A stretch of 64,000 nt of DNA from an uncultured Bacteroidota bacterium (GTDB taxonomy: Bacteria > Bacteroidota > Ignavibacteria > UBA10030), in the NCBI GenBank assembly GCA_963739335.1, contig CAVUAC010000063.1, forward strand, positions 36,672 through 100,671. The letters are read 5' to 3'. Both the position numbers and the translations under genes were made by a program. Shown piece after piece: positions 4,093 through 33,517 of this stretch. The notes under the pieces are model-generated. The model was not told where the DNA came from. It did no database searches and worked only from the letters and a program-made list of their open reading frames with translations. Within the stretch, counting starts at the first letter, position 1. Each line of letters begins with the position of its first letter.

Positions 4093-4165
4093 TGCCCCGT
4101 GGTGTAATTGGCAACACGTCTGACTCTGGATCAGAAAAGTCTAGGTTCGAGCCCTAGCGGGGCAG
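4093..4165 (+). tRNA. tRNA-Gln (anticodon CTG)
   Basis: Hand-folded cloverleaf: acceptor TGCCCCG/CGGGGCA, D stem GTGT/ACAC, anticodon stem TCTGA/TCAGA with loop CTCTGGA, and T arm CTAGG-TTCGAGC-CCTAG. Confidence 0.85.
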
Positions 4166-6613: not shown

Positions 6614-7687
6614 TCATCTGTATTTTTGAGGCCTGAAGAGGAAGAACGCTCTGAAGACACGAAAGATCATGTACGCAAAGAAACCGAGTGTCGAGAAGTA
6701 GATATAGAATTCTCTGTTTTCCATGCCGATGGAGAAAATCTTGAAGATCGTGAATATGCTCACACCAAAGATGTAGATCGGCCCCATGTTGAAGTAATGA
6801 CCTTCGTCGACCTGGCGGAGTTTGCGAATCTCGTCGGTGTCGAGATATTTCTCACGGGAGCCGTGCCAGAGCATGTTCTTGATATGAAATGGATTGCCGT
6901 TGGATGCTTTGAGGATCTCCCTTCGATATAGTTCTGGGTCAATGATGTGCAGAGGGTAGTTCTCGAAAAAGTAGTTGATGAGCTGGATGGAAACGCTTTC
7001 CGGCAAAGGCTCCAATTCGATCTTGGTGAAGGAAGCCCAGATGCGCTTGAAGAAGAAGTTCTCCTTCATTTGAACAACCGCCGCACAGATGAGAGCAATG
7101 TTCAAAAGGGTCTCCAAGAATTTCTGTTGAGTGGGCGAGATTCTGTCCAGGTTGTCAAAGAAGATGAGATAAGGTTTTTGCGATTGGGAGATCCCTTCGA
7201 AAATCAACGCTTGCAGTTTGTTGGCCCCGAGGCCTGACAGCTGCTTTTTTGCCGAGGTCCAGTCTGAGCGCTCCTCGTCGAGCTCTACGTGAAGATCCCC
7301 CAGATAGAAGAGGTCCTCGGCAATTTCCTTGAGGCAATCACCTAACGGGCTGGAGTGTTCGATGAAGAGCATCTTGTATTGGTCTGGTTTGATTCGAACA
7401 CCCAGGTTGCCGCGTAGCTGGGCGATGATGTTCGCTGAGAAATCGATACGCCTGGTTCGCCCCGAGAGGATCCACTTTGCTTCGAGCATTAGCCGACTCT
7501 TGCCAATGCCCTTGTCTCCTGCGATCAGTGTGTGACGGCCTTTGGAAAGATTCTTGACGAGTTGATACAATTCTTCGGTCCTGCCAAAAAAGGTTGTGTC
7601 CTGCCGTAGGTCTGATGAGGGCCCGGATTTGTTCACGGTTTCATCCGGAGGAATACTACTCCTGTGTTTCGCATATATAGCATGCAT
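6614..7687 (-). CDS. AAA+/ORC-Cdc6-like P-loop ATPase with C-terminal transmembrane segment(s)
   Basis: FFGRTEELYQLVKNLSKGRHTLIAGDKGIGKSRL is the Walker A region and LIFFDNLD is Walker B. The C-terminal GPIYIFGVSIFTIFKIF...YIYFSTLGFFAYMIFRVF is hydrophobic. Confidence 0.7.
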   Translation of the reverse strand: MHAIYAKHRSSIPPDETVNKSGPSSDLRQDTTFFGRTEELYQLVKNLSKGRHTLIAGDKGIGKSRLMLEAKWILSGRTRRIDFSANIIAQLRGNLGVRIKPDQYKMLFIEHSSPLGDCLKEIAEDLFYLGDLHVELDEERSDWTSAKKQLSGLGANKLQALIFEGISQSQKPYLIFFDNLDRISPTQQKFLETLLNIALICAAVVQMKENFFFKRIWASFTKIELEPLPESVSIQLINYFFENYPLHIIDPELYRREILKASNGNPFHIKNMLWHGSREKYLDTDEIRKLRQVDEGHYFNMGPIYIFGVSIFTIFKIFSIGMENREFYIYFSTLGFFAYMIFRVFRAFFLFRPQKYR

Positions 7688-8421
7688 CGGGGCGCAGTTG
7701 ACCCAAAGCGATTCTTGGAAGCAAATAGAATACGGTGATGACTCTGGCCTTCTTGAATGTCGAGATGCAAAACTACGTCGACAGCGTGCTCGAGAAGTTT
7801 CGGCCCAGCCGCTGTTTTGTTTTTTGTAACCTGTCCGACAATGATGAGCACAAGGTTCTTCTGCTGGGCCAGTCGGCGCAGGATATAACTACATTTTCGT
7901 ATTTGCGTAGCACTTCCCGGCAAGGAGGTCGTCGCGTCGGAATATATGGTTTGAATTGAATCTACAATGAGCATCCGTATCTTTGTCTGGTCGACGTGTG
8001 AAAGGACTGCGCTCACGCTCGTTTCGAAGAGGACGAGTATGTTCTGCGACGATATCCTCAGGCGATCGGCTCGAAGCTTTAGCTGCTGAACAGACTCTTC
8101 CCCCGTGACGTATAGTGACGGGATGTTCATCTTCTTGAGCAGCTGCATGAGTAAGGTTGACTTGCCTGCGCCTGGAGGTCCGGTGATGAGAACCGAGCTT
8201 CCGGGAACAAAGCCATCGCCCAGCAATATGTCGAGTTGTTCGATCCTGGTCTTGATTCTTGGTACGACGAACGATTCAATTTTGGCAAGTGCAACAGGTT
8301 GTGCGCTCGGGTTAGAAATGACATTCGTTTGCTTTCTGAGAGAATTCCATCGGCCGCAATCGGGACACGCAAGTTGGAAATTCTGGAAGATGGAATTGCA
8401 TTTTGCACAGACATAGGGCAT
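7633..8421 (-). CDS. RadA/Sms-like protein: N-terminal zinc ribbon plus RecA-fold ATPase, no Lon-like domain
   Basis: MPYVCAKCNSIFQNFQLACPDCGRW is the ribbon. VLITGPPGAGKSTLLMQ is Walker A. LIVDSIQ...KNLVLIIVGQVTK...HRILFASKNRFG follows. ATG 8421 was verified by hand, and the upstream part of track ORF 7633..8820 is low complexity. Confidence 0.75.
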   Translation of the reverse strand: MPYVCAKCNSIFQNFQLACPDCGRWNSLRKQTNVISNPSAQPVALAKIESFVVPRIKTRIEQLDILLGDGFVPGSSVLITGPPGAGKSTLLMQLLKKMNIPSLYVTGEESVQQLKLRADRLRISSQNILVLFETSVSAVLSHVDQTKIRMLIVDSIQTIYSDATTSLPGSATQIRKCSYILRRLAQQKNLVLIIVGQVTKNKTAAGPKLLEHAVDVVLHLDIQEGQSHHRILFASKNRFGSTAPRCMLYMRNTGVVFLRMKP

Positions 8422-8579
8422 GAGAGATCCATGTGTTTCGGAATAATGGAATGGTGTAGTGGAGTATGAATCTGTTCGACCTCTCCTTTGTCCCCTCCTT
8501 AGGAGGAGGGGAAGGCTTGGGAGGCAATGGAAGTGCGACCTCCCCTTCGTTACCTTCTCGGAGAGGAAGGGATGAATTG

Positions 8580-10238
8580 TCATTTGAGGCGCTTGATGAT
8601 GAATGTGATTTGGGTTTTGTTGTTGTGTGGGACCTGACGGATATCCATAAGCAGGCCGTTGACGGTTGAGAGGACCTCGGATTGTGTTTCGGCTGCCTTT
8701 GCTTTTGCTCTGAGCTGTTGATTTGCAAGAATCAGTTTTCGAATGTCCAGTGCGATCTTCGATGAGGTCGCGGCTCTTGACGCATTGAGCTGAGAAAGAA
8801 GAGTCTTGCTCTTTTGCCATTTCAGCTCGGAGAGCTTGAGGACGGGATCAGATGTGAATCCGTCTTTCGAGAGCTCGGTTCGATGACTATGTTCTATTGA
8901 GTCGATCTTTACGGTTTGCTCCGCGTTGGCGATCTTCTGATCGATGTCTGATAAAAAGGAAACCTTCTGGCTTTCGAGCAATTGGATTCGCTCTTGATTC
9001 AGGCTGATTTGATCCTGGAAAAACTGGGCAAGGTTCTTCCTGGCGATGAGTTCTTTTTCTCTGACTGTGTCCCCCCTCGACTTGTAGAACACCACGGATT
9101 CCTTTGGATCGAGCGTGAAGGAAATCTGGGTAAAGTTCTCGAGTTTTGGCAAGGTCAACCCTACCGGAGAATGACCCTCCTGGCCTTTGCCGGGAAGAAT
9201 CGATTTGACTGTCAAGATGCCCTTCGTGATGAAGACGTACTCGAGATTGAAGGTGCAAATATCGTGGTATCTGGCGTAGTTGAACTTGATCGTGCCTCCA
9301 CCCCCGGTGACCGGGCTGAAGATTCTAATGTTTTCAGGGAGTGAGACTCTGTCCGCGGTCGAGAGATCGCCGAAGAGATAGTTCTCCATTGATGTGTCGA
9401 TGTACGTCGTGATTTGCGAAAGCAGTTGGTTGCTGAGATCGATGCTTCGAACGAAGGAACGAGCGGGCTCACCTTTCTGACAAAGTATGTTCTCCGCGAC
9501 ATAGTCGGCCTCAAAGTCTTTTCCGAGGGTGTGCAGGTCGCCATCGACTCCCTTGAAAATCAGAGTAGAGGGATTTAGGGCCCCGATGACCTCAACTGTA
9601 CCGTTGGAGGGTTGTTTCGTGAGCATGTTGTAGGCCGTAGTGTTCGCGAACACCAGGTTGTCTTTTGAAAATCCGTTGTAGTCACGGACAGCTGACTCAA
9701 TATTCCCTTGTGTGGATCGGATGAACCGTTCATATCCCTGGTTGGCGATCAAGAAGACCGGAATGCAGCCAAGGAGGAAGAAAAGCCCGAGTATCCTGTC
9801 CATCCTGGATCCAGTCTGTAGCCGATACCGGTGGGGATTATTGACCTCCAACGGGAATACGCACTTCAAGCTTGACAGAGGATAGAAAAGCTTGACGCCG
9901 TGGACCGTCATTGTGTCAAGGAAAGGGTGTGAGGCGTATCCGGCCAAAAGGCAAGTGTAGGTGTTTGGGCTCAGCAAGTGGAGAGGAAGGAGAATGGTGG
10001 CAAGCGTGACGATGAATATGACCGAGTGTGTGAGGGTGCGATGACCAAATCGGCGCTCCAGTTTGTTGGAGATGAATGGAATTGCCCGGCCGGGGAGACT
10101 TGCAGCTGTGTCGATGTCCGGCAAGACTGATGCGATCGCAATGGTGGCAGCGTTGGGAGTGTTCAATGCTACACCCGTAGTTGTGAGCAGGAGCAAGTAA
10201 GTGAATTCAGCGAATGTTATGTGAGTGGGAGCGGTCAT
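8580..10238 (-). CDS. YdjM/DUF457-like membrane metal-hydrolase domain fused to a ~370-aa TM plus coiled-coil (membrane-fusion-like) region
   Basis: MTAPTHITFAEF...LPDIDT...GHRTLTHS...HPFLD are His/Asp motifs within TM helices, as in YdjM-family proteins. A long coiled coil follows. The start ATG 10238 was verified by hand. Confidence 0.6.
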   Translation of the reverse strand: MTAPTHITFAEFTYLLLLTTTGVALNTPNAATIAIASVLPDIDTAASLPGRAIPFISNKLERRFGHRTLTHSVIFIVTLATILLPLHLLSPNTYTCLLAGYASHPFLDTMTVHGVKLFYPLSSLKCVFPLEVNNPHRYRLQTGSRMDRILGLFFLLGCIPVFLIANQGYERFIRSTQGNIESAVRDYNGFSKDNLVFANTTAYNMLTKQPSNGTVEVIGALNPSTLIFKGVDGDLHTLGKDFEADYVAENILCQKGEPARSFVRSIDLSNQLLSQITTYIDTSMENYLFGDLSTADRVSLPENIRIFSPVTGGGGTIKFNYARYHDICTFNLEYVFITKGILTVKSILPGKGQEGHSPVGLTLPKLENFTQISFTLDPKESVVFYKSRGDTVREKELIARKNLAQFFQDQISLNQERIQLLESQKVSFLSDIDQKIANAEQTVKIDSIEHSHRTELSKDGFTSDPVLKLSELKWQKSKTLLSQLNASRAATSSKIALDIRKLILANQQLRAKAKAAETQSEVLSTVNGLLMDIRQVPHNNKTQITFIIKRLK

Positions 10239-10437
10239 CAGATGGTTGATGGATGATGGATGATGGGTGATGGTGCACCTTTTCGATGTATTGGCATAGG
10301 ATGCTAGTGAGGCGATACAAATCCATTTCGGTGACGATGGATTCGCCGCTCCGCCCATCCAGCTGAAGCGTCTTGGACCAAGCGTTTAGGATCGTTTGAA
10401 TCTCAGGGGCAGTAGGGATCCTGCGCACGATGGACAT
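10207..10437 (-). CDS. Hypothetical small protein (76 aa)
   Basis: ORF only. Its tail runs through the CCATCA low-complexity leader. Confidence 0.3.
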   Translation of the reverse strand: MSIVRRIPTAPEIQTILNAWSKTLQLDGRSGESIVTEMDLYRLTSILCQYIEKVHHHPSSIIHQPSDDRSHSHNIR

Positions 10438-10439
10438 TC

Positions 10440-10982
10440 TCAGTACTCCCTTTCCTCAGGCGGTCGATACTCTAACCTCAAATGGCGAAAAATCTCTTCT
10501 TCGCTGCGAATGGGAATGATGCTTCCTGTGTCTGTCAACAATCCGCTGCCATCCGCCTTGAGGTGCATATGGAGTTCCATCGCTCTTCGAGCAAGTTTGA
10601 CGTTGTGGTTACGGCTGCCTGTGCGAATTAGGAGCAAAGTCCACCACGTCGGCTCGGTGGCGACGTACAAGTCGATAGGAACGGCATCATCATCGACCGT
10701 TTTGAAGAAGCGTTTGATCTTTGAGCCGTTTGCCTCAAGCTCTAAGTCTCCCTGCAGACAGAGTTGAGAAAGCTGTTTGTCGAGCTGATTCTCTTGAACT
10801 GGTTCACCGAAGAGGGTGTCGTCGTCCGCCTGGATGAACCTAGGAATCGCGAGGATATCGATGTCGTTGACAGCGACTTTGAGTCGGCGAAGTGAACCTA
10901 CGATTTCGATGCGGTCGCAGGCTGCGGATATCTGGTTGATGAAGTCTTCGGCGATCTCACGGGCGAAGGTGTCGGGGAACAT
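10440..10982 (-). CDS. Minimal family-X DNA polymerase / polymerase-beta-type nucleotidyltransferase (181 aa)
   Basis: IVGSLRRLKVAVNDIDILA...IDLYVATEPTWWTLLLIRTGSRNHNVKLRRA...EEEIFRHLRLEYRPPEERE has the palm-thumb layout of minimal Pol X enzymes. ATG 10982 was verified by hand. Confidence 0.7.
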   Translation of the reverse strand: MFPDTFAREIAEDFINQISAACDRIEIVGSLRRLKVAVNDIDILAIPRFIQADDDTLFGEPVQENQLDKQLSQLCLQGDLELEANGSKIKRFFKTVDDDAVPIDLYVATEPTWWTLLLIRTGSRNHNVKLARRAMELHMHLKADGSGLLTDTGSIIPIRSEEEIFRHLRLEYRPPEEREY

Positions 10983-11056
10983 GGACGGATCTAGATTAGT
11001 TAATTGGTGATTGGTTAATTGGTGAGTGGTTAGTTCGTTAATTAGTGAATGATGTC

Positions 11057-11245
11057 GCCGCTTTTCTTTTGCTTGTCCAAAAGAAAAGCGGCAGAAAAGA
11101 AAAGGACACCCGAAATCAAATCGCACGCACAAGGAGCAACAGTCTTGGGTAGAAGTGATGCAGGAACTGTTAGCTCGACGAGTTTTCTCGTCGACCACCT
11201 TTGACCGGAGATCTACCTACGCACACCGCCGTGATTTCGGGGCCA
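11057..11245. repeat. Structured intergenic element, family 1, copy a
   Basis: It has a perfect hairpin GCCGCTTTTCTTTTG-cttgtc-CAAAAGAAAAGCGGC, then GGACACCCGAAATCA ... TGATTTCGGGG (P1 halves), with an inner hairpin CTCGACGAG-tttt-CTCGTCGA. Confidence 0.7.
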
Positions 11246-11290
11246 ACGCACAAAAGCGCACATACAAGTCGAACATATCAGCATCCTAAA

Positions 11291-12424
11291 CTATGGGGGA
11301 CGGTTGTGGGGTAAAGAGCGCTTCATCAGCACGGTGGCGGATTGTTCTTCCTCCGCTGTGAGCAGCTGAACCCAGGGTAGCGTTCCATCGCCGTTGCCGT
11401 GGAGGCAGGTCCACATCCAGGCGAAGGGATTGGCAATACGAGCTTTCTCACTGGCCTTCAACATCAACCTCAGAGCACGCAGGACAAGTTCTGGGTAGTT
11501 CACCTTCTCAGTGAGGACGTTGTATGCGTGATAGCACATCCTGAGTTTGTAGTCATCAGAGCCGCCTAGGAAAAGTTTGCGGAGCTCTGAATCGAGCGGG
11601 ACCCAGTCAAACCTGTTTGAACGATCTTCGTTCCAATTGGCTATTTCGGACCGGAACGATTGGGCGTATTCCTCGAATGCGGAGTCTGAGAGAGCGATGA
11701 GATACAGATCGGTTCCTGACTCGACTCGGTCAGCCTGAATTGCAGGCTCAGCAACCTCCGGCTGAGTGGAAAACTTGTGAATATCTCTGGCGTCTTTAAC
11801 AAGCAAATCTTTTTCTGTTCTCTCTCTATTCTCCTTCTGTATCTGTTCTTCTTCTGTTTCTAGGAGAACTTTCTCTGACTTTGTTCGAAGCGAGTCCGGA
11901 GTTTGTCCGATGTTGTCCGGACAAACTCCGGAGAGTGTTCGGAGATTGTCCGAACAATGTTCGGAGTCTGTGCGAACATTGTCCGTGTTCTTATGCCGGC
12001 GTCGCGTGTAGTCATCCGCACGTTGTTCGAATGAGGGACTGTATAAGACGTTGAATTTCAGCCACTTGTGAGAGTCGAAGAGTCCAACCTGAACGCAGGT
12101 CTCGATGACTTCTTTCAGTTTGCGCAGAGAAGTAAAGAGATTCTTTCCGAGGATTCTTACCGGAAGCCTTGGGACCCTCGCCAGGTCGAGGTGAACTGCA
12201 GAGAAGTTGTCTGCGGCTTTTTCGGAGGTTTGAAGGAGATTCATGAAAGTTTGGTCACTTTCTTCAGAGATTTGCATGACTTTCAGGTGAAATGTGTCAG
12301 AATGTTGTCCGATTTCTTCCAGGAGCCCCCAGTAGATGCCAAGACCCTCGGCTCCATGAGTTGAGCCGAGGATCTGGAGCTTCGGATCATGCCGCGCTGC
12401 ACATTCATGGTGGAACCATTTCAT
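11291..12424 (-). CDS. DUF4373 (Lin1244/Lin1753 N-terminal)-like replication-associated protein
   Basis: MKWFHHECAARHDPKLQILGSTHGAEGLGIYWGLLEEI matches the N-terminus of phage/plasmid replication-initiation-associated proteins. The coding sequence carries iteron-like repeats. Confidence 0.65.
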   Translation of the reverse strand: MKWFHHECAARHDPKLQILGSTHGAEGLGIYWGLLEEIGQHSDTFHLKVMQISEESDQTFMNLLQTSEKAADNFSAVHLDLARVPRLPVRILGKNLFTSLRKLKEVIETCVQVGLFDSHKWLKFNVLYSPSFEQRADDYTRRRHKNTDNVRTDSEHCSDNLRTLSGVCPDNIGQTPDSLRTKSEKVLLETEEEQIQKENRERTEKDLLVKDARDIHKFSTQPEVAEPAIQADRVESGTDLYLIALSDSAFEEYAQSFRSEIANWNEDRSNRFDWVPLDSELRKLFLGGSDDYKLRMCYHAYNVLTEKVNYPELVLRALRLMLKASEKARIANPFAWMWTCLHGNGDGTLPWVQLLTAEEEQSATVLMKRSLPHNRPP

Positions 12425-12461
12425 AGGATTTACTTTACTTGCCCAATCGAAAATAGAGGCT

Positions 12462-12790
12462 CAACCCTTACGGGTTGTCACTTCTCTTGCTCGTCCAAGA
12501 GAAGTGACCAAGAGAAGGACGCCGAAATCGAAACCCGCTTCATAGAGCTTCCCCCCACATGCCAGAAATTTCGGTGAGGAGTGAATACTGCATTCTCGAT
12601 GGTTGGGTTGCCTTTCACCGAAATTTGAACGCACGTGATTGAGCTGCCGACGCACACTGCCATCGATTTCGGGTAGCTCGGGGCAGGTGATCGTTCCGCT
12701 GTGAAGAAGATGGAAGAAACTCAATTCAGTAAAGCGAAGTAACTCCTGGATCAAATGGAGCAAGAGGAGAATGTAGGGATTAAGCTTCAT
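12462..12790. repeat. Structured intergenic element, family 1, copy b
   Basis: CAACCCTTACGGGTTG; hairpin CACTTCTCTTG-ctcgtc-CAAGAGAAGTG; P1 CCGAAATCGA...TCGATTTCGG; P2 AAATTTCGGTGA...TCACCGAAATTT. The right end overlaps the ATGA junction with the upstream gene. Confidence 0.75.
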
Positions 12791-14262
12791 TGAGATCCTC
12801 CGTAAGCAACGTGGGTCACTTTTTCAGCCGATAGTAGAACTGCTCGACTTTGTCGATGACACGATTTCTTTCCAAGAGCTCGGTACTGTTTGTTATAGAG
12901 ATCAGCCACCAGTGCCAGTGCAGCCTGTCGGAGCCGGGGACGTTTCAAGAACGACGCTTCAGCTGCGATGTTTTCGATGAGGTCTAGTACGACGATAGCA
13001 GTACCTTCGTTGAGCGAATGGAGATCAAACTCCGGAGTGAGAAACCGGACCTTGGATTCTGCGTCGGCGATAACTGAATCGCATTTGTGACCAAAGCTAT
13101 CAAATACCTGCTGACGAAAAGAGCGAAAGAGACGCTCGAGGAGTCTGACGTATTCAGATGGTTCCTCTTGCGGTCGTTCGTGTTTGGAATCTGACGTGTC
13201 CTCCGTCGGTTGGCCCGCTGCCAATTTCTTGGTTTGGCTCTTGAGTCGCCTTTGAAGGCCCGTGACCCGCCTCTGAAGCCCTGTGTCCCGCCTCTGAAGA
13301 GGCGGGCTAGCCCCTGGCGGCTGGGTAGCTGAAGGAGGTTGGTCTGGCACCCGATGGGTGATGACAAAGGTGCTGGCTTGGGAGCTGTCGTCGTGAACGC
13401 TGTGAGTGTGATGGTCAACGGCCCGGGGCTCGCCTACAGATGAGCCTTCCGCCAGAGAGGCGGCGGGCATAGGCGAGTTGAGAATCTTATTGATGAATGA
13501 TGTGAATTCCTCTGCCTCTTTCTCATCGTCTGGTGCCAGGGTCTCATCAGCTGAAGAGTCTTTCGAGGTACTCAGCGAACCTGGGGGAGTTCTGCTCACA
13601 CTCGCTGATGTGTCGGCCATTGTGTCAGGAACACGAATGGTCGACTTTATTGATCGTATGGACTGTGAAGCATACCTTTCCTCGATGAGATCTTTGTTCT
13701 TCTCGATGTCGTAAACTAGAATTCGCCCCCGCTTGAAAGCTGGCTGATAATGAATGATGTCGTCGGGCGAATTGATTTCCCGAAGGTCAAGGGATGGAGT
13801 CGGATTCACAAATTCATTGCATTCGATGATCCCCTTTTGGCACTCAGTGCATCTCAGGAGGGTCGCGATTTGCTTCCTTGAGAGACCGTCAATCTGGACT
13901 TTCACGCAAGGCTCATAGTAGAAGGTTGACCGGAAGCGGTTGAGAACCTGGTCGGATGCGACGTAGAGAGAGACTCGCGTTCGGTCTTCTCTGCCCAGTA
14001 GCGTAAATGTCTGGTACGCAACCTCAGCACGGATTTGAAATCGCAGATCTCGATTCATGCGTGCGCACTCGTAGATATCAGGTCCTCGGAAAAAGAGCAT
14101 ATCGTAGTAGCGTGACGCGGGCGTGTCCGAAATTGCAGGTTTCTGTTCGTATGAGATCATGATGAACCCCAACGAATCGCCAGCTTGAGAGCGGACGAGC
14201 AACTGGGGGTCTAGGTGTTTTCCTGGCACGTCGGCGATGATCTGTACTGCATCGTTCAACAT
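12787..14262 (-). CDS. Hypothetical protein (491 aa) with a low-complexity acidic/Ser-rich centre
   Basis: Long ORF in operon orientation with the internal tandem motif LQRRDTGLQRRVTGLQRRL. No domain recognised. Confidence 0.6.
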   Translation of the reverse strand: MLNDAVQIIADVPGKHLDPQLLVRSQAGDSLGFIMISYEQKPAISDTPASRYYDMLFFRGPDIYECARMNRDLRFQIRAEVAYQTFTLLGREDRTRVSLYVASDQVLNRFRSTFYYEPCVKVQIDGLSRKQIATLLRCTECQKGIIECNEFVNPTPSLDLREINSPDDIIHYQPAFKRGRILVYDIEKNKDLIEERYASQSIRSIKSTIRVPDTMADTSASVSRTPPGSLSTSKDSSADETLAPDDEKEAEEFTSFINKILNSPMPAASLAEGSSVGEPRAVDHHTHSVHDDSSQASTFVITHRVPDQPPSATQPPGASPPLQRRDTGLQRRVTGLQRRLKSQTKKLAAGQPTEDTSDSKHERPQEEPSEYVRLLERLFRSFRQQVFDSFGHKCDSVIADAESKVRFLTPEFDLHSLNEGTAIVVLDLIENIAAEASFLKRPRLRQAALALVADLYNKQYRALGKKSCHRQSRAVLLSAEKVTHVAYGGSQ

Positions 14263-14279
14263 TGTTCTTCAGTGCTCAG

Positions 14280-15563
14280 TCATTTGAGCAAGACGGCTTT
14301 CTTCGTCAAGACTCCCGACGGAGTAATGATTCGGACGAGGTATACACCCGACGGCAGAGTTGGGTCGAACAGATGGATTTGATGAATGCCTGGCAGGAAG
14401 TGTGTTTTTGGTTGTTTGTCAACCTCCTGACCCAGGATGTTGAAGAGCTTGACCCAAACATCCATTGCCTCAACAAGGTTGAGCATAAGAAAACCATCTT
14501 CGACGGATGCACTAACGAGGATTGCAGGAGCGATTTCTGGCGTTAGGGCTATCGAGGATACCAATTGAGACTTGCAGGCAGGCCGGGACTGCAAGCGAAA
14601 CGTGTCGGCTCCGATGGTGAAGAAGGAATCGAAGACAGAAATCGTTACGGTTCCCAGAATTCTTGCTTTTGCTGTTATTCCACCGTTTCCTGTCTCTGTC
14701 TGATAGATGTATCGGACCGAGGTCGTGCTCTGCAGCCGATGAAGCGTTTCCTGCGCAGGATGACGATAGATGTTCCGATCGCCTACAGAAATGACGACTG
14801 CTTCGGGTCGCAGGCTATCAAGGAAGGTGCGATTGGTTGAGTAACGGCTACCATGGTGGTTGATCTTCATTGCATCGACATCGCCAACGAATGCGGCCAG
14901 AGGAGTCTCGATATCTGTATAGGTTTCTGTCACACCTCCGCAATCTCCGCCTGTAAAGTACTTGAATGAGAAAGTTCTACCATCTACCGTGTGTTCAGAT
15001 GAAAGCAACCAGGCTATGCTGCGGTTGTTCTCGCCCGCCAGACCGCCGTCGGGCAGGTGGGCTCTGCTCCCCGCGACCTCACCGCATCTGAAAACAGCAC
15101 CATCGACAGCGAGGCATTGAAGAAAAACCTCTTTTGTGAGCTTGATAGTTTGGCCAAGATAGACTGCGGCATGCCGATTGGTGCTTTGGGCAGCTGACCA
15201 GTATTGCCGGAAAGCTCTGGATGTTGGGAGTGGGGGTGTGCCTCCTCTATCTAGAATAGTTCGAACGCTGTCTGGGGAAAGACCTTGGATGAGCTTGTCA
15301 ATGCCGCCGATGTGGTCCGAGTGATAGTGTGAGGCGACCAAGTAGTCGAGGGACGTAATCCCTAGGCTATGGAGATAAGGGAGAATGATGGTTTTTCCTT
15401 TGCCTGTGTCACCGGCGTCGATAAGGACGGTCTTGCCGTGAGAGGTTCGAATGAGTGTGGCGTCGCCCTGACCGATGTCGATGTGGTGGATTGTCACTCG
15501 CTGCGAAAACAGTTCCGTATAGACAATGAGAAGCGAGAGTAGTGTGTATAGATGAAGATTCAT
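14280..15563 (-). CDS. Secreted metallo-beta-lactamase-fold hydrolase (ComEC C-terminal-like) with T9SS C-terminal sorting domain
   Basis: The signal peptide is MNLHLYTLLSLLIVYTELFSQ. IDIGQGDATL...ASHYHSDHIGG is the HxHxDH motif. The C-terminus is ...LPSGVYLVRIITPSGVLTKKAVLLK. ATG 15563 was verified by hand, and the upstream 136 codons of track ORF 14280..15971 are repeat copy c. Confidence 0.8.
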   Translation of the reverse strand: MNLHLYTLLSLLIVYTELFSQRVTIHHIDIGQGDATLIRTSHGKTVLIDAGDTGKGKTIILPYLHSLGITSLDYLVASHYHSDHIGGIDKLIQGLSPDSVRTILDRGGTPPLPTSRAFRQYWSAAQSTNRHAAVYLGQTIKLTKEVFLQCLAVDGAVFRCGEVAGSRAHLPDGGLAGENNRSIAWLLSSEHTVDGRTFSFKYFTGGDCGGVTETYTDIETPLAAFVGDVDAMKINHHGSRYSTNRTFLDSLRPEAVVISVGDRNIYRHPAQETLHRLQSTTSVRYIYQTETGNGGITAKARILGTVTISVFDSFFTIGADTFRLQSRPACKSQLVSSIALTPEIAPAILVSASVEDGFLMLNLVEAMDVWVKLFNILGQEVDKQPKTHFLPGIHQIHLFDPTLPSGVYLVRIITPSGVLTKKAVLLK

Positions 15564-15993
15564 TGAGGGTCTGCGCGAGTAGTCATGGTCATGCAGATGA
15601 GTAGATGTGAACACCCCTGCTGGATAGCACTCGGAAGGATGTTTGTCTTTTCTCTGAGGAGAACGTTGAGTCCACTTTCTTTTTGCTCGCCCAAAAAGAA
15701 AGTGGACAGAAAGTCGCGCTGTACGGGATCCCGCCTTTCGTATTTTGAAGCGGGAAAAAAGGGCGCCGAAATCGAAACCCACGCGGGAGCGCCTCCTCCC
15801 GCCTGCCGGAAATTTCGGTGAGGAATGGTAACTGCTGTCTCGACGATTGGATCGAGACTCACCGAAATTTGAACCCACGTGGTGAAGCTGCTCACGCACG
15901 CCGCCATCGATTTCGGATAGCTCGGGGCAGATGTTCGTTCGGGCTTGAAGAACGTAGAGAAGAAGTTTCATTGAGGGTCTCCGTGAGTAACGA
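15564..15993. repeat. Structured intergenic element, family 1, copy c (with flanking ~28-nt direct repeats)
   Basis: Hairpin CCACTTTCTTTTTG-ctcgcc-CAAAAAGAAAGTGG; P1 CCGAAATCGA...TCGATTTCGG; P2 AAATTTCGGTGAG...CTCACCGAAATTT enclosing GTCTCGA...TCGAGAC. It is flanked by agattcattgagggtctgcgcgagta (15556-) and agtttcattgagggtctccgtgagta (15964-). Confidence 0.75.
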
Positions 15994-16026
15994 CGTTATG
16001 CGAATTCGGAAAAGTGCTCGGAAGTA

Positions 16027-16100
16027 TCAAATCCCCCCGACCCCCCTTTTGAGAAAGGGGGGATGTTGTGCTGGTACTCGATGCCGTGGATTTCGGTGGC
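16027..16100. repeat. Intergenic element, family 2, copy e
   Basis: caaatCCCCCCgaCCCCCCttttgagaaaGGGGGG is a G6/C6 hairpin. It is followed by the gtgGATTTCGGtggcc box. Confidence 0.6.
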
Positions 16101-16123
16101 CATATTTGCCATCTGGCAGAACA

Positions 16124-16891
16124 CTAATATGAAAGCTTCAATTTGATGAGAGCCTCCTCGTGACGGATTTGAAGAAGCGATCTCATTGCGGCTGAAAGCT
16201 CGAGCTTGGAACGTGTAAGGACGTCGAATTCGATCTTACCTTGTTGGAAGCGCAATTCATTGAAGTGGAGCAATTCCTGGATGAGGCTCATGTCTCTTTC
16301 AAGCAATGCCGACTCGGCCTGCAATGCTTGCAGTTGCTTTTCAAGAGACCTGCGAGCCTGTTGACGCTGGGCGGTGCGCAATGATAGCTCAGCGTTCAGC
16401 CGGTCCAGTTCTAAGGTGGCGTCGGTGTGCCTAGATGAATTGATAGCCTCGTTCAATGGCAGGCTGATCGATAGTCTGTATGCGTCGCGTGGAAGAATGT
16501 AGGGTGTGAAGGAACCCGGGTCGATGAATATCAGATCGTGCATGCCGAAGCTGGCCGATAAATGGATCTGTGGAATGATGCGTCTCCAAAAGCTGGTTTC
16601 CCGAACTTGTTCCGATGCTTTGGCGATCTCGAAATGCAGCAAGACGAGTTCGAGACTGTCAATAGAGGAGCTCTGAACCAAGGTGTCGATGAAAATGAGT
16701 TGAGTAGCTGCCACACCTGCGTCTGATGCAGGACGACTAACAGGTTCGCTTGCATTCAGAGAGCCCTGGTGGGCAGGTCCGCCTGCGCCCATAGTATTTC
16801 CGCGGACCTGTCCACAGAGTGGGATGCTGCAGGAGGTGAATGTGAGCAGGAAGAAAATGCTGACACGTATTGAGATTGATTGTAGGGTCAT
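16124..16891 (-). CDS. Secreted coiled-coil protein, weakly TolC/outer-membrane-efflux-like
   Basis: The signal-like N-terminus is MTLQSISIRVSIFFLLTFTSC. The C-terminal half has TolC-style heptads: LELDRLNAELSLRTAQ...ELLHFNELRFQQGKIEFDVL. Confidence 0.5.
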   Translation of the reverse strand: MTLQSISIRVSIFFLLTFTSCSIPLCGQVRGNTMGAGGPAHQGSLNASEPVSRPASDAGVAATQLIFIDTLVQSSSIDSLELVLLHFEIAKASEQVRETSFWRRIIPQIHLSASFGMHDLIFIDPGSFTPYILPRDAYRLSISLPLNEAINSSRHTDATLELDRLNAELSLRTAQRQQARRSLEKQLQALQAESALLERDMSLIQELLHFNELRFQQGKIEFDVLTRSKLELSAAMRSLLQIRHEEALIKLKLSY

Positions 16892-17165
16892 AGGTTTTTC
16901 TGTGGTCAAGAACGACGACAGAATTCCAATGCGTACTTATGCTGAAACAGGTATAGGCGGTTTCGCTATCGGCATTGCCACACCAGAACAAAGTGATCGA
17001 GTGTCCCAGGTTGCCTCACGGCGAGAGGGGCGGCCAACTGCAAGGTTCGCATCTTGAGAAGTTCGTCCGCAGATCGTAAGGATTGGGGGTTTCGGAGGAC
17101 GGCCGACAGCGCAGCCAGAGGCAAATGATGAGATTGCTGGTGACTGTTCGCGAGTGGTCGCTCCA

Positions 17166-18074
17166 TCAGCTTTTGCGTGCCCGTGGGGAGGGATGCACCG
17201 GAGGACCGGAGGGCGGGGGGTTGCAGTACCTCCCAGACCCCAAAGACAAGAAGCCAGATGTGGTTTCGCGAGTAATGGTGCCACCGGCTCGTCCCAGCGT
17301 GCGAACCTGTCTCCACGAGCAATCAGGAAATTCCGTTCGCGTGACTGTGCTGCCATCGGCCTGGCCATAGCTTTTGCGGAGTTGGACGAGGTTGCCGTCT
17401 CCGTCCTGGACCTTTGAAATGATGGCTCCATTTGATGCGTACCGCGTTGCTACCCGGATCGAGCCATCTTGCGGATTGACAACCCTTGTGACGACAGGCA
17501 GACGAAACGTATACGTCTCAAGCCTCCCGTTGCGCAAGACGTGCGTGACGATTGTGTCCTTTTGAAGGCCGAAAAGCTCGGTGACGGTGGTTTGCTGTGG
17601 ATTGTCATCGCGGAGATTTATGTATGAGGCATACCTCTTGGTCTCCGTGACGATATGTCCGTTTCCCTTCCCGTACGATTTCCTGATCGTAATAAGCAGC
17701 AGGCCTTTGGGATGTGCGTAACGCTCAGTGACAATCGCACCGTAGCCCCCTGAGATGACCTGGCCATAGATGTAAACTGTGTCGTTAGCCGTCTTCGTGA
17801 GCGTCATCTTTTTGGTGGCTGAAGCGTCGTTCGAGACTGAAAGGTTGGGTCCATTCGTGAACGTATCTGCCCAGTCGGCGATGGCGTGGACTTCATCAAG
17901 CGCTGAGATGAGAAAGTCTTCGCCGGTGGCTTCGAAATCGTATTTCGAGATGTCCGGGGGTTCGGACATTTGAGTGAGATGGCTGTCGGTTTGACACGCT
18001 CCGAACAGGAAGGCTGCGAACAGGAATGCAGCTGTCGCAAGAAAGAACCGGCCGAGAAAGGGTGATGGGGTCAT
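17166..18074 (-). CDS. Lipoprotein, unknown function
   Basis: MTPSPFLGRFFLATAAFLFAAFLFGAC is a lipobox-like signal. ATG 18074 was verified by hand. Confidence 0.6.
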   Translation of the reverse strand: MTPSPFLGRFFLATAAFLFAAFLFGACQTDSHLTQMSEPPDISKYDFEATGEDFLISALDEVHAIADWADTFTNGPNLSVSNDASATKKMTLTKTANDTVYIYGQVISGGYGAIVTERYAHPKGLLLITIRKSYGKGNGHIVTETKRYASYINLRDDNPQQTTVTELFGLQKDTIVTHVLRNGRLETYTFRLPVVTRVVNPQDGSIRVATRYASNGAIISKVQDGDGNLVQLRKSYGQADGSTVTRTEFPDCSWRQVRTLGRAGGTITRETTSGFLSLGSGRYCNPPPSGPPVHPSPRARKS

Positions 18075-18196
18075 GTGAACCTCCGAGGATGTTGTGAGAG
18101 TTATGAGAGTGTTGGAAGGGGAAACCCTCCCCCGAAGAAACTTCTTCGGGGGAGGCAAGACCGCTGAGAGCACCAAAAAGAATGTTCGGCGGAAGA

Positions 18197-18295
18197 ATCA
18201 AATCCCCCCAACCCCCCTTTGCGAAAGGGGGGAAACGCATAACTGTGGGGATCTTGTGGATGACGCAGGCCAGCACCGCCATCGATTTCGGTAGC
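18197..18295. repeat. Intergenic element, family 2, copy f
   Basis: caaatCCCCCCaaCCCCCCtttgcgaaaGGGGGG is followed by caccgCCATCGATTTCGGtagc. A nearby perfect hairpin is CCCCCGAAGAA-ac-TTCTTCGGGGG (18127-18153). Confidence 0.6.
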
Positions 18296-18427
18296 AAGTG
18301 GCGATTGAGAATTCCGGCGATCAGGATCAGATAATTGCTCATTAGGTCGCTCAGAAGTGGAAGACTAAGACTGTCGTCCTTCGACTCGCCTGCCAAAAGA
18401 CGGCAGTCTCGCTCAGGACAGCAGGCC

Positions 18428-18847
18428 TCAATAGTGAAAGATCAAAACTGCTGCTTCGAACCGCTTGTGTTGAATCTGGATCACGCCGATATAGGTGCCG
18501 GGTGGTGCGAACAGGTTGTCATCGGTATCGCCGAGCCAGGTATGGGCGTGTGAACCCTTTGATTCTGTAGCATTGAGTACGAGAGTCTTCACGAGGTACT
18601 CCTTTCCAGTTGAATCAGTTTTGACTATGAATGCGTTCAATGTGGCTGGGACTTTGAGCGAGTAACAGATCTCAGTGTTTGACTTAAACGAATCAAACGC
18701 GCTGGGTGAAAAGCGAAGACTGCTCACCAGCTCCGGATCATCCAGTGCAGAGGGAAGCTTACAACTGCTCAGGAGCGACAAGACTATGAGCCTTGCCAGT
18801 GTGCGATTATGCGTTTGGTGCCGCGCCATAATTGTGGATGAATTCAT
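18428..18847 (-). CDS. Small secreted/lipoprotein with FlgD-Ig-like C-terminal fold (tentative)
   Basis: It has the signal LARLIVLSLLSSC and ...SHAHTWLGDTDDNLFAPPGTYIGVIQ. An alternative start is at 18829. It overlaps the recombinase 3' end. Confidence 0.5.
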   Translation of the reverse strand: MNSSTIMARHQTHNRTLARLIVLSLLSSCKLPSALDDPELVSSLRFSPSAFDSFKSNTEICYSLKVPATLNAFIVKTDSTGKEYLVKTLVLNATESKGSHAHTWLGDTDDNLFAPPGTYIGVIQIQHKRFEAAVLIFHY

Positions 18848-19676
18848 TCGACAGAATTCTCTTAATGAGCGATTCTCTCATCTCTGGGTGTTGCTGCAGA
18901 TGCACATAAGTGTTGTGTAAGGTGTTGGGAGTACAGTCGAGGTGAAGAGCATAGCTCAATTCGTTCAGGGCATGACGAATGCTCATCTTGTCTACAGGTT
19001 TCTCGCTGAAGGACTCGAGAAAGATCGTGTCGGAGCTCGAGTTTCTGAGCTCCAAGTAGGTGCGTAGTTTCTTCAGGACCGATGCGTGGAGACGAAGGCT
19101 GAACAGCGTGCTAATGATGAGCGACACAGATTTCTTGGTTGTGTGAATAGAGGAGAGTCGCAGTGTGCGCAGCTGGTATTTTCGGACTCCGTAGAAGATC
19201 ATGAGCAACAGGATCAGCTCGTCTCTTCGATAGCGGACAACGTCCGAATCCTCTGAAGAGCGTTGGCGCCGATTGAGATAGTGAAAGATTGAGACGATCT
19301 GATCTGAGGAGAGAATGCCTCCTCTCACAGGCGTCACGGCCAGCGTAGCCGCAGGATTGCTATGAATCAGGCCCTGGTTGAGAAGGAACAGGAAGAAGTT
19401 TTTGAGGGCGAAGGAAGCACGTTTGACAGATGCGAATCTCAATCCGGAACGGGCCAGGGTGTGAAGGTAGTCTTCCAGATCCTTTGTCTGAATTGCGACA
19501 ATAGAACTAAGGTCAGGGGAATCGGACTGGCGAGCAGAACGGTGCAAGAAACCATTGACATCTGAAGCATAGGCCTTAATGGTTCTGTCTGACATTTTCT
19601 TCTTCCTGAGATATCCTATGAACTCCGTGAGGGTGACCTCTATGGGTTGTGGTGTTTCCTGAGGGCCCATGAGCAA
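18807..19676 (-). CDS. Tyrosine-recombinase-like protein (XerC/D-type core-binding domain, degenerate catalytic domain)
   Basis: The N-terminus TEFIGYLRKKKMSDRTIKAYASDVNGFL...KRASFALKNFFLFLLNQGLIHSNP is SAM-like. The catalytic region keeps GVRKYQL (Arg I). It has TPNTLHNTYV where sPHxLRHsfA is expected, and there is no clear LGH...Y tail. Confidence 0.65.
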   Translation of the reverse strand: MLMGPQETPQPIEVTLTEFIGYLRKKKMSDRTIKAYASDVNGFLHRSARQSDSPDLSSIVAIQTKDLEDYLHTLARSGLRFASVKRASFALKNFFLFLLNQGLIHSNPAATLAVTPVRGGILSSDQIVSIFHYLNRRQRSSEDSDVVRYRRDELILLLMIFYGVRKYQLRTLRLSSIHTTKKSVSLIISTLFSLRLHASVLKKLRTYLELRNSSSDTIFLESFSEKPVDKMSIRHALNELSYALHLDCTPNTLHNTYVHLQQHPEMRESLIKRILSNEFIHNYGAAPNA

Positions 19677-21091: not shown

Positions 21092-21285
21092 GCTTGTAAC
21101 AAGCGGCAAACCGACGCTCGTGGCTAGTGCTGGCAAGCTATCATGAAGTCAAATGATTGTGAAACCTATTAGGGGCTCATCCACTCGCTCCCCGAAGGGG
21201 TCCTTCGGACAATGCGGTTGCCCTCACAATATCAGACAGAAGGTGTTCGCAACGGCACTGCGGTTTGCCTGAACTCGTTATGCGC
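21092..21285 (+). repeat. attC-type site 1 of array 1
   Basis: 5' cttGTAAC-aagcg-GCAAACCG ... CGGTTTGC-ctgaactc-GTTATGC 3', with the conserved inner blocks GGGCTCAT(C/T)CACTCGCTC and GCAACGGCACTG. Confidence 0.65.
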
Positions 21286-21313
21286 AATGTTGCATAATAA
21301 CGGAGACCAATAT

Positions 21314-22054
21314 ATGTGCGAGAACGTTCTAGCAGGTGTCATATCGAATACCATCTTCTTCGGAATCACCATTGTCATCGGCTGGTCAGCGTTCTTGATA
21401 GTTCGACGACGACGACTCCTTAAGTTTTTTGGAATCGGCGAAACCAAGAGGATAACCGTCTATTTGTCGAACATTCGTGTTGTTGAAGGTGGTTCTGTGG
21501 GAACAGACGGGAAGCCGAGGCGTTATGCAGGCACCACCGTGACTATTGGTGAGGCGGTCCAAGCCAACCTTTTCCCGAATCTTTTCAGCTATCGGATACC
21601 TGGTCTGAGTGACAAACCAGGGATTTTGAAATATCTCATGGTCTCTGATGTTAAGGTCGTCGTCTTGCCTTCCCCACTGAAGGAGGAAGATATCGACAAG
21701 ACGTCATCCATGATCACGTTTGGCTCACCGGGATACAATGTCGTATCGCAATGGGCCGAACGAAAGTTCGTGCCACGAATGAAGTTCGTGCAGGACAATA
21801 GTCAAATTGCGGTGGACAATCTGCCGAACATTGCCGATGGTAAACAGTCTTTTGTGCAAAGGCTTTATGACTCTGACAACAAGCGATGGGTCTTCTACAC
21901 GGCAGGCCTGTCTGAGCTTGGAACCATCGGAGCCGCTTACTTCTTGGCTTCACAATGGCGAAAACTGTATAAGAAATATGGTGCGAAAGATCCGTTCTCT
22001 CATATCATTTCGGTTAATCATCAGAATTACCAAGATGCAACTGTAGTCGTGTAA
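21314..22054 (+). CDS. Cassette protein: N-terminal TM anchor plus uncharacterised alpha/beta-like domain
   Basis: ATG 21314 follows GGAG (8-9 nt). The TM is VISNTIFFGITIVIGWSAFLIV. The upstream part of track ORF 21212..22054 lies inside attC. No family recognised. Confidence 0.6.
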   Translation: MCENVLAGVISNTIFFGITIVIGWSAFLIVRRRRLLKFFGIGETKRITVYLSNIRVVEGGSVGTDGKPRRYAGTTVTIGEAVQANLFPNLFSYRIPGLSDKPGILKYLMVSDVKVVVLPSPLKEEDIDKTSSMITFGSPGYNVVSQWAERKFVPRMKFVQDNSQIAVDNLPNIADGKQSFVQRLYDSDNKRWVFYTAGLSELGTIGAAYFLASQWRKLYKKYGAKDPFSHIISVNHQNYQDATVVV

Positions 22055-22076
22055 GACTATTTCATTCGGCAACACT

Positions 22077-22250
22077 GCGCATGACAATCGGCAAACCGGC
22101 GCTCGCGGGCTAGAGTGGCAAGGGAAAAACCACGTTGGGCTATTGCACTCGCTCAATTGTTTTTTTGGTGTGATTTCTTAGGCTCAGGTAGTACTCGGTC
22201 AAGTCTTGGTCACCAAGAACCGCTGGGTGTAGCCGCGGACTGCGCCACTG
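22077..22250 (+). repeat. attC-type site 2 of array 1 (3' half diverged)
   Basis: 5' gcgCATGAC-aatcg-GCAAACCG gcgctcgcgggctag...cactcgctcaattg... The 3' half, ccgctgggtgtagccgcggactgcgcc, only loosely matches the family. Confidence 0.5.
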
Positions 22251-22265
22251 GCTTCAATAGAAGGT

Positions 22266-23475: not shown

Positions 23476-23488
23476 AAGGTATATACCG

Positions 23489-24652: not shown

Positions 24653-24806
24653 CAGGCGTAACCAAGACGCTTATTCATTTGCAAAGGCAATGTCAAAGCT
24701 GAGTCTGGATGACGGTTGTATTCGCTCCACGGTTTTTGTCGCGGGAGGATTGATTGTTTTGTAGCGGCAAAAGCAACGGCGTTGTTAGAGCAGATGTTAT
24801 GCGTCG
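24645..24806 (+). repeat. attC-type site 3 of array 1
   Basis: GCGCATAAC (contains the TAA stop of the cassette) ... cagatGTTATGCGTC. The inner sequence is unlike the other sites, as is usual for attC. Confidence 0.55.
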
Positions 24807-33082: not shown

Positions 33083-33340
33083 CCATTTTCTTTTTGCTCG
33101 CCAAAGAGAAATCTCGGCACTTTAGATCTCGACCCTTACGGGTTGTTACCTTTTTGCTTGTCCAAAAAGGTAACCGAAAAAGGACACGGAAATCGTAACC
33201 CGCGTGATAGAGCTGCCCACGCACAAGCCGAAGATTTCGGCCTTATAGAGTTCTGCAATCGATGAAGTGTCAGCAATCGACCGAAATCTAAACGCACCTG
33301 ACTGAACCGCCATCCCACACCGCCGACGATTTCCGGGGCA
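33083..33340. repeat. Structured intergenic element, family 1, copy d (diverged)
   Basis: CGACCCTTACGGGTTG; hairpin TTACCTTTTTG-cttgtc-CAAAAAGGTAA; P1 CGGAAATCGT...ACGATTTCCG; P2 AGATTTCGG...CCGAAATCT. Both helices carry compensatory changes relative to copies b and c. Confidence 0.7.
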
Positions 33341-33517
33341 ATGGGCGAGTTTTGCGCAGTGGAGTAGAAAACGACCCAGGTAACAGAAACCACCAGCGTG
33401 GGTGGGAGATGAATTTGAGTATCACAATGCAAAGCGATTTGTCGCAAAATGCAAAAGGCAATTCATTGCTTTTCCCCTGTTGCCGGTCTACCTTTCCGGA
33501 CAACGCATGGGGGAAGA

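Follow-up and report, generated by a model that had tools for sequence, protein, structure and literature searches.

Four copies of a structured intergenic element, here named a, b, c and d, are found in a stretch of 64,000 nucleotides (nt) from an uncultured Bacteroidota bacterium (Ignavibacteria; UBA10030), which is referred to as the window (GenBank assembly GCA_963739335.1, contig CAVUAC010000063.1, positions 36,672 to 100,671). The large open reading frames (ORFs) around a, b and c are all located on the minus strand. The Pfam matches near these copies are an OEP-like fragment, a metallo-beta-lactamase-fold (MBL) protein secreted via the type IX secretion system (T9SS), a Lin1244_N protein and a PolX-thumb protein, and no Pfam match was obtained for a 491-amino-acid (aa) ORF between the MBL and Lin1244_N genes. 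The window genes from about 6614 to 19676 constitute a conserved integrative island, which has the same gene order in relatives whose MBL proteins are 57-74% identical. The island contains an Xer-like tyrosine recombinase and, further on, the OEP-like protein, the MBL protein, a protein of about 475 aa, Lin1244_N, PolX-thumb, YdjM and AAA proteins, after which it ends with a large serine recombinase next to tRNA genes.

The element is organised in units that have the same order on the plus strand. A unit begins with a perfect hairpin (hairpin B; 12-16 bp with the loop CTYGYC in the four window copies), which is followed by a purine box ending in GGRSRC and by the 5' half of a helix designated P1. 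A conserved stretch of about 35 nt, holding an AACSCRC box and a CRCAC box, leads to the 5' half of a second helix, P2, whose halves are separated by a variable apex of about 25-45 nt. The P2 3' half is followed by a second, similar stretch of about 35 nt and by the P1 3' half. The homology of the four copies and their common plus-strand order, as put forward in the original prediction, were confirmed almost letter for letter by direct reading and by a four-copy alignment. The box 3' of hairpin B reads GGACAC in a and d, GGACGC in b and GGGCGC in c. P2 is AAATTTCGGTGA(G)/(C)TCACCGAAATTT in b and c and AGATTTCGG/CCGAAATCT in d. Moreover, only in b and c is the P1 3' half followed by GCTCGGGGCAG. 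The minus strand of b contains CAACCCGTAAGGGTTG, of which d has a near-copy, and a small hairpin A (CAACCCTTACGGGTTG) directly precedes hairpin B in b and d. A degenerate additional hairpin lies near d (33083-33112). The core of the element consists of two direct repeats of one module of about 55 nt (M1 and M2), each ending in inverted CCGAAAT...ATTTCGG; in the whole window, CCGAAAT occurs 25 times compared with an expectation of 11.3 +/- 3.1. Because the core is made of direct-repeat modules with such inverted ends, the four strands can also pair 1:2 and 3:4, which explains the alternative folds that had been pointed out earlier.

Related copies were collected from other sources, and labels such as L003 denote these comparison loci, which are contigs of metagenomes and of one metagenome-assembled genome (MAG). 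An exact-pattern scan of representative genomes yielded two contigs of the MAG and the same type of scan uncovered 27 loci on metagenome contigs. No copies were detected in viral contigs by the pattern scan or in searches of plasmids and phages. With nhmmer and a covariance model of P1 and P2, 45 strong matches (121-170 bits) in 25 sources were obtained. They represent 42 distinct cores, recovered from the window, the MAG and the metagenome contigs; weaker matches include copy a. The hosts were placed in the Ignavibacteria by the protein names on homologues of genes in the window and the loci. The seed pattern for the metagenomes fixed GAAAT in the P1 5' half and ATTTCGG/CCGAAAT in P2 and left the P1 3' half free, and the partner copies that nhmmer or the covariance model alone detected had no letters fixed. 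The covarying columns described below lie outside the fixed letters. Copy a is divergent, as it has no CGAAAT-type P2 and is matched by the covariance model at 11101-11252 with 30.2 bits (E 2.7e-07). Its tail resembles that of the L031 copy, and a like-placed weak match is present after the orthologous Lin1244 gene in L003 (2254-2404).

The co-variation of P1 and P2, which had been claimed from four copies, is strongly borne out by the 42 distinct cores. Across P1 (10 bp) and P2 (12 bp), 93.5% of the cells are paired as opposed to 83.4% in shuffles, half of the base pairs (11/22) have changed on both sides, and 99 double-change cells compare with 34 in the shuffles. Neither the pairing nor the covariation score was reached in any of 500 column shuffles, a type of control that overstates significance because the alignment was fitted to the structure and the sequences are related. 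When the 3' partner was slid by 1-3 columns as a further control, pairing fell to 19-57%. P1 occurs as CCGAAATCGA/TCGATTTCGG, CGGAAATCGA/TCGATTTCCG, CCGAAATCAT/ATGATTTCGG, CCGAAATCGT/ACGATTTCGG and CCGAATTCTC/GAGAATTCGG, and P2 as AAATTTCGGTGAG, AGATTTCGGCC, AAATTCCGGTGC and AAATTTCGGCGA, each with its exact complement. RNAalifold recovers P1 unaided. It missed P2 in alignments made with MAFFT alone, which in the ATTCCGG subtypes places the P2 3' half one column out of register, and the covariance-model realignment was therefore used. Furthermore, the outer and the inner pair are often unlike within one element (CGG.../...CCG outside, CCG.../...CGG inside), which indicates that crosswise pairing of strands 1:4 and 2:3 is kept and argues against four identical protein sites or a homogenisation of M1 and M2. 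Selection on the complementarity of P1 and P2 is supported.

A third interaction, which is new with respect to the original prediction, connects the loop of hairpin B with the GGRSR end of the box abutting P1. The loop strand comprises the last four loop bases and the first base of the 3' arm, and the variants are TCTCC/GGAGA, CCTCC/GGAGG, CGTCC/GGACG, TGTCC/GGACA and CGCCC/GGGCG. A set of 12 distinct variants is 100% paired in hairpin B and in the loop-box interaction; 11 of the 13 pairs have changed on both sides, and one-sided changes are absent altogether. A mutual-information scan revealed no Watson-Crick covarying pairs beyond P1 and P2 and none inside the conserved loops.

In RNA families, G·U pairs commonly make up several per cent of the helix positions. 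Among about 900 paired cells of the element, six are G·U (about 0.7%) and six are A·C, which means that there is no strand bias; for the same reason, an assignment of the functional strand from wobble pairs was uninformative. Transitions occur throughout as double changes that lack a wobble intermediate, with no preference for either strand. The near-absence of wobble together with the missing strand bias points to a constraint on DNA or on both strands, and the strict Watson-Crick covariation speaks more for such a constraint than for a classical RNA. This pattern is atypical of RNA helices and stands against the explanation that the element is a functional structured non-coding RNA (ncRNA), such as a small RNA (sRNA), a stabiliser or processing element of an untranslated region or a self-cleaving, ribozyme-like RNA, in whose transcript P1, P2 and the loop-box pseudoknot form and which was multiplied in part by hitch-hiking on transposable elements of the miniature inverted-repeat type (MITEs). 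We consider this explanation rather unlikely. It would account for three covarying helices, of which one is pseudoknot-like and directly beside P1, for the conserved internal loops of about 35 nt and for the folding energies, since the z-score of single-sequence folds is about -3 for either strand; these folds recover hairpin A, hairpin B and P2. However, a scan for sigma-70 promoters and intrinsic terminators, which does not cover promoters of the Fibrobacteres-Chlorobi-Bacteroidetes (FCB) type, identified none at the elements. A candidate sigma-54 promoter upstream of the small gene after d was discarded, as its GG-to-GC spacing is 9 nt by eye and not 10 nt. Moreover, two tRNAs were the sole matches to Rfam 15 at the gathering threshold, and searches at E<=10 over 10900-16300 and 32700-34800 returned chance-level miRNA-type matches and no riboswitch, ribozyme, sRNA, omega/HEARO RNA or other family. 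In the original prediction, the element could likewise not be assigned to a known RNA or repeat family.

The coordinates of the window copies, their parts and associated features are compiled in Table 1.

Table 1. Positions of the four copies and of associated features in the window
Feature	Position	Strand	Remarks
Large serine recombinase	4154-6109		beside tRNA genes 4093-4165 and 4256-4328
Copy a, divergent solo unit	11057..11252	+	purine box and GGACAC 11093-11109; tail GGCCAACGCACAAAAGCGCAC
Hairpin B, copy a	11057-11092	+	15 bp, loop CTTGTC
P1 CCGAAATCA/TGATTTCGG, copy a	11110-11118 / 11232-11240	+	
Copy b, solo unit	12462..12686	+	covariance model 162 bits at 12513-12685; hairpin A 12462-12477; box 12509-12521; P2 12566-12577 / 12605-12616; GC box 12676-12686
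Hairpin B, copy b	12477-12508	+	13 bp, loop CTCGTC
P1 CCGAAATCGA/TCGATTTCGG, copy b	12522-12531 / 12663-12672	+	
Distal flank of b	12687..12808	+	diverged copy of the 36-nt MBL-start sequence at 12773-12808, with ribosome-binding site (RBS) and ATG on the minus strand
MBL native start region	15546..15581	-	one of two 36-nt direct repeats bracketing copy c, 86% identical
Copy c, solo unit	15670..15930	+	covariance model 152 bits at 15757-15929; nested small palindrome ~15708-15752; box ~15753-15765; GC box 15920-15930
Hairpin B, copy c	15670-15707	+	16 bp, loop CTCGCC
P1 CCGAAATCGA/TCGATTTCGG, copy c	15766-15775 / 15907-15916	+	
Second 36-nt MBL-start repeat	15954..15989	-	far side of c; creates the spurious 563-aa ORF
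Xer-like tyrosine recombinase	18807-19676		62.6 bits against a cut-off of 329.6, weakly Xer-like
Copy d	33130..33347	+	covariance model 157.6 bits; hairpin A 33130-33145; box 33175-33187; core 33178-33347
Hairpin B, copy d	33145-33174	+	12 bp, loop CTTGTC
P1 CGGAAATCGT/ACGATTTCCG, copy d			

It is extremely improbable that the element encodes a small protein or leader peptide on the minus strand, for which the ORFs 12461-12790 and 15560-15907 and a 563-aa ORF fused to the MBL gene would be the candidates. In favour of a peptide, an RBS-like sequence and an ATG precede b and c, an open frame with the shared string CPELxEIDGxVRxxLxHVxSNFGE exists in b, c, L003, L026 and L004, and the MBL gene of the window, like that of L004, is fused to this frame. 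However, most copies have stops in every frame, and stops also interrupt the frame in the b/c-subfamily members L012 and L018. An 8-nt indel shifts the minus-strand frame in the d-type copies, and the syntenic orthologs (L003 for b, L026 and L004 for c) do not have the start codons of these ORFs. A protein-coding ORF was rejected on these three grounds, and the peptide-like string is shared because the DNA is conserved. The 563-aa ORF (14280-15971) arises because the element happens to read in frame into the MBL gene, for which a separate RBS, ATG and signal peptide are present at 15563.

The start of the MBL gene carries the 36-nt sequence listed in Table 1 in all relatives. The diverged version in the flank of b is 69% identical to the native one, and since the b flank holds MBL-start sequence, b resembles a copy of c that carried neighbouring DNA with it. 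This suggests that b may have been derived from c by duplication or recombination rather than by clean cut-and-paste. When compared with L003 and L031, the neighbouring 491-aa ORF (12787-14262) carries a 1-nt insertion some 25 codons ahead of its end (window ~12820-12870), which is either a sequencing error or a recent frameshift. As the conserved C-terminus ...VIDKVEQFYYRLKK* is present in another frame, the true stop is probably near 12821, and an ATGA stop/start overlap with the 491-aa gene was dismissed as an artefact of this frameshift.

In the other loci, copies lie between unrelated genes and in both orientations. Their neighbours include genes for deoxyhypusine synthase, heparinase, cupin, multihaem cytochrome, GH88, KduI, NUDIX, rpsT and beta-lactamase, and our own grouping of the flanks distinguishes at least 15 different contexts. 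The original prediction had named a random orientation relative to genes as speaking against a selected fold, and both orientations do occur in the wider set of copies. Most copies are arranged tail to tail in pairs, in which two different types of unit meet at their GC boxes; such pairs are present at 15 loci, several of which are orthologous, leaving about ten distinct flanking contexts. Solo units measure about 230-430 nt and composites about 550-700 bp. For an ncRNA, the predominance of convergent pairs is awkward, as any transcript would read one copy in each sense. In addition, tandem arrays of diverged units of about 400 nt occupy a long non-coding stretch beside a sigma-54 activator in L024 and L029, and copy d has the same sigma-54-activator context. 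These arrays resemble clusters of paralogous sRNAs, which is a point for the RNA. Each ~400-nt unit of the arrays is accompanied by the motif GGAATCGATTGGCGGATTGAGTGG and by a GTGACGC-N17-GCGTCAG hairpin (L024 600-1434, L029 in its entirety and L001 1900-2800), and the GGAATCGATTGGCGGATTGAGTGG motif also occurs twice upstream of copy d (window 32850-32985).

A comparison of the flanks of the 15 pairs revealed that homology stops sharply about 50-150 nt outside the hairpins. At these boundaries, CTAG is followed directly by TGGAYTGTTACGATGA on one side, and TCRTAACARTCCA is followed by CTAG on the other. The inverted end motif is present on both sides of the cores in L005 (2786/3332), L021 (1849/2524) and L023 (408/1085), and on one side in many other composites. 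The 4-bp flanks are CTAG/CTAG, CTAC/CTAC (L010, on the same strand and hence a direct repeat), CTAG/CTAA and CTAG/CTCG. One pair subtype was found in three unrelated contexts (L010, L011 and L021). The elements are themselves the site of smaller palindromes, which sit nested within hairpin B or in the stretch that separates it from the box; copy c holds one of them. These inserts (TCCCGC..GGATCCCG..CGGGATCC..GCGGGA and CTCCGCCGGAGGCGGAT + GAGCCTCYGGCTC; window 15708-15752, L006/L008/L015/L017/L019, L007, L002 and L021) are a second mini-repeat family that targets these hairpins. Another separate small palindromic repeat, a C6-8/G6-8 hairpin (CATCCCCCCTTTCTCAAAAGGGGGGTCGGGGGG; window 16030-16062, L003, L004 and L030), adjoins the GC-box side of b/c-type units and is also present at the L030 site that is empty of the element.

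Filled and empty sites in close relatives could be compared at two loci, and more distant versions of the island (L031/L032) add to the comparison. In L030, whose MBL protein is 72% identical to that of the window, the gap between the OEP-like and MBL genes is 154 nt long and has no element. L004 has an insert of about 400 nt with a core at the same flanks, bracketed by CACCCTTTT and CATCCTTTT; its flanks form an 8/9-nt direct repeat, which is present once in L030. In L031/L032 (MBL 57% identical), the OEP and MBL genes overlap and the gap before Lin1244_N is 95 nt, so that neither b nor c is present, and one copy (84.7 bits) is located in another gap of the island (L031:7850). Between NUDIX and rpsT, L016 has a composite of about 590 bp whose left side is truncated, whereas L033-L036 (NUDIX 97% identical, flanks almost identical) and L037-L040 have a gap of 120-123 nt and no element. 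No covariance-model match was obtained in the 128 kb of L033-L040. The empty sites in close relatives imply that the element is gained or lost on short time-scales and is dispensable, which is a further difficulty for an ncRNA.

The comparison also bears on the possibility that the element is a folded single-stranded DNA (ssDNA) site for recombination or transposition, either attC-like or a hairpin substrate of an HUH/Y1 enzyme (IS200/IS605 or RAYT type), with the loop-box pairing acting as a guide-to-cleavage-site interaction. The helices are strictly Watson-Crick and the hairpins perfect, the window holds attC-like arrays and recombinases, and doublets dominate over the rarer singlets, as in REPINs (inverted doublets of repetitive extragenic palindromic sequences, REPs). 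Moreover, the island solo copies (a, b, c and L031:7850) have a single orientation, which is expected of strand-specific insertion; the fact that they share it relative to co-directional genes would also suit an ncRNA. However, the recombinases on both flanks, which had been linked to the elements, belong to the conserved island that exists without the elements in L030, and a connection with them was therefore rejected. Copies also lie between housekeeping genes far from any recombinase. The attC cores RYYYAAC/GTTRRRY are missing from P1 and P2, the spacing as well as the large and conserved internal loops are unlike those of attC, and the composites differ from IS200/IS605-type elements in having terminal inverted repeats (TIRs) and 4-bp flanks. 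Neither a Y1 nor a RAYT gene was noticed, although no systematic search was made. A membership in the attC-like arrays of the window was discarded on core sequence, spacing and genomic distribution, and we regard an ssDNA site of either kind as improbable. An inversion of the P1-bounded segment, which had also been proposed, finds no support, the order M1-spacer-M2 being constant in 45/45 strong matches.

Taken together, the copies are probably non-coding, modular, hairpin-rich interspersed repeats of Ignavibacteria, that is, a previously undescribed kind of small, non-autonomous mobile DNA; the literature searched yielded no description of such a repeat for Ignavibacteria. The best-supported description of the family is MITE-like in the paired form and REPIN/BIME-like in organisation (BIME, bacterial interspersed mosaic element), with doublets of two unit types, singlets and arrays. 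Among the three roles considered in the original prediction, that of a MITE gains from the dispersal, from the occurrence in both orientations, from the TIRs and 4-bp flanks around the common paired form and from the empty sites, whereas the invertible site has no support and the operon RNA is weakened because both orientations occur, wobble is nearly absent and unbiased, and near-identical strains do without the element. The paired form would be moved in trans by a transposase, which may be IS5-like in view of the YTAR-type 4-bp flank. The strict Watson-Crick helices are probably needed either in a folded single DNA strand during mobilisation or replication, or on both strands. The solo copies of the window, which lie in intergenic gaps of the island, may be left over from paired elements or may have been copied out of them, and within the island they would be co-transcribed passengers at most.

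Several observations weigh against mobile repeats of this kind. No composite terminal repeat was detected in the window with up to 3 mismatches allowed, which makes its copies solo units, and no clear target duplication surrounds the four of them. As CTAG is palindromic, a target duplication is inseparable from the terminal repeat in most copies. Within about 400 kb of loci, neither an autonomous element nor a transposase with matching ends was seen. The shuffle controls are generous for the reasons given above. Moreover, some copies occupy the same intergenic position in diverged genomes, namely c together with the copies in L026 and L004, and b together with that in L003. Over its 37 N-terminal residues, the MBL protein of the window is about 68% identical to that of L026, and relative to c, the copy in L004 shows a compensatory change in P2. 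Shared position and compensatory change imply that some copies persist under purifying selection on pairing, and the same positional conservation across c, L026 and L004 speaks for an ncRNA. The flanking non-coding DNA at the orthologous b and c sites has diverged beyond alignment.

The architecture of the core is a further objection. M1 and M2 are direct and not inverted repeats, the internal loops are highly conserved and the loop-box pairing adjoins P1; a transposase-binding end would not require so elaborate a core, which has the look of a designed fold. It is conceivable, if doubtful, that the core of about 170 nt is itself the functional fold, as the ssDNA substrate of an undescribed mobilisation enzyme or as a structured RNA spread by MITEs. 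Such a fold could be pseudo-two-fold, with direct-repeat strands paired crosswise, loops of about 35 nt and a pseudoknot cap stacked on P1. In the RNA variant it could be ribozyme-like or protein-binding and kept by selection at solo sites such as b and c.

The mobile-repeat interpretation can be set against known families. Bacterial MITEs include Correia/NEMIS, ERIC/IRU, Nezha and the MITEs of Coxiella and Porphyromonas (PMC10969869, PMC3184786, PMC2229807). Like these, the element is small (<~1 kb), has no coding capacity, is multi-copy and intergenic, is able to fold into long hairpins and is dispersed with presence/absence polymorphism between strains; the paired form has TIRs and short flanking repeats, and an in-frame fusion to a gene occurs occasionally. 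Unlike MITEs, the element has no terminal repeats in its window copies and no known parent insertion sequence, and its core is composed of direct-repeat modules with their ends paired crosswise (1:4, 2:3) plus the loop-to-box pairing. The dominance of inverted doublets of two unit types, presumably the mobile form, alongside singlets and clusters is reminiscent of REPINs, and the preservation of pairing by correlated changes and the mosaic architecture with small linkers recall REPs and BIMEs. The units of these families, which are associated with RAYT (REP-associated tyrosine transposase) enzymes, are imperfect palindromes of about 20-40 nt with a conserved, GTAG-type 5' tetranucleotide. The present unit, by contrast, is about 220-300 nt long with several hairpins and a 170-nt core, it has no GTAG-type 5' tetranucleotide, and its composites have terminal inverted repeats, unlike REPINs. 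The pneumococcal BOX element (boxA-boxB-boxC) and the Rickettsia palindromic elements are modular and have some copies in frame with genes. The Ignavibacteria element shares the modularity, the stem formed by complementary outer modules and the occasional in-frame copies, but it has no sequence relationship to them, follows another module logic and belongs to another phylum. With attC sites it has in common that structure is conserved over sequence between copies and that it lies between cassette-like genes in the window. It differs in that R''/R' cores are missing, the half-sites are about 45-50 nt apart (5-8 in attC), the span is about 150 nt (57-141 nt in attC), P1 is CCGAAATCGA/TCGATTTCGG, the internal loops are large and conserved, and copies elsewhere lie between housekeeping genes and not at cassette boundaries of an intI-associated array. 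What sets the element apart is its two-module core with crosswise pairing, together with the loop-box interaction; the kind of element is otherwise familiar.

If the copies are indeed mobile repeats, they would add one more family of small mobile repeats, and the first one that we could find for Ignavibacteria. They would then also give rise to ORFs that are spurious and to fused genes, of which the 563-aa MBL call is an example, and to broken assemblies, and they would mimic structured RNA in covariation screens. Compensatory change alone is no proof of RNA, given that riboswitch-strength covariation coincides here with almost no wobble and with dispensability between near-identical strains.

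Other features of the window are worth recording. Two arrays of attC-like sites extend over 21093-27804 on the plus strand and 48880-54207 on the minus strand. Examples are the sites 25466-25641 (..TATAAC-AAG-CGGCAAACCG ... CGGTTTGCC-TGAAATC-GTCATGC) and 49380-49521 (GCATAAC ... GTTAGGC). The sites separate single genes, among which are those for a pPIWI-associated nuclease and for NERD, YaaC, DUF4145, HATPase, RNase H and PIN proteins. The arrays look like chromosomal integron cassette arrays with defence-type genes, and no IntI was identified. Runs of 8-nt units (TTAATTGG/TTAACTGG; GGTGATTGGTTAATTGGTGAGTGG) are present at 1429-1564 and 11000-11050, directly upstream on the minus strand of the gene starts at 1460 and 10982. 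Two non-coding segments of about 300 bp (57581-57803 and 60909-61205), which are 93-96% identical and 3.3-3.4 kb apart, each carry AATTGTCAATTGACAATT palindromes and a hairpin AAAGAGGCAATCC...GGATTGCCTCTTT. Each of them is situated 3' of a hydrolase gene on the minus strand, namely GH127 (58323-60197) and an S9 peptidase (61544-63982). Finally, the region 54330-56941 contains 11-12 tandem repeats of about 120-123 nt (41 codons, 60-84% identical) within a gene for a T9SS-secreted BNR/sortilin-CHAP protein.

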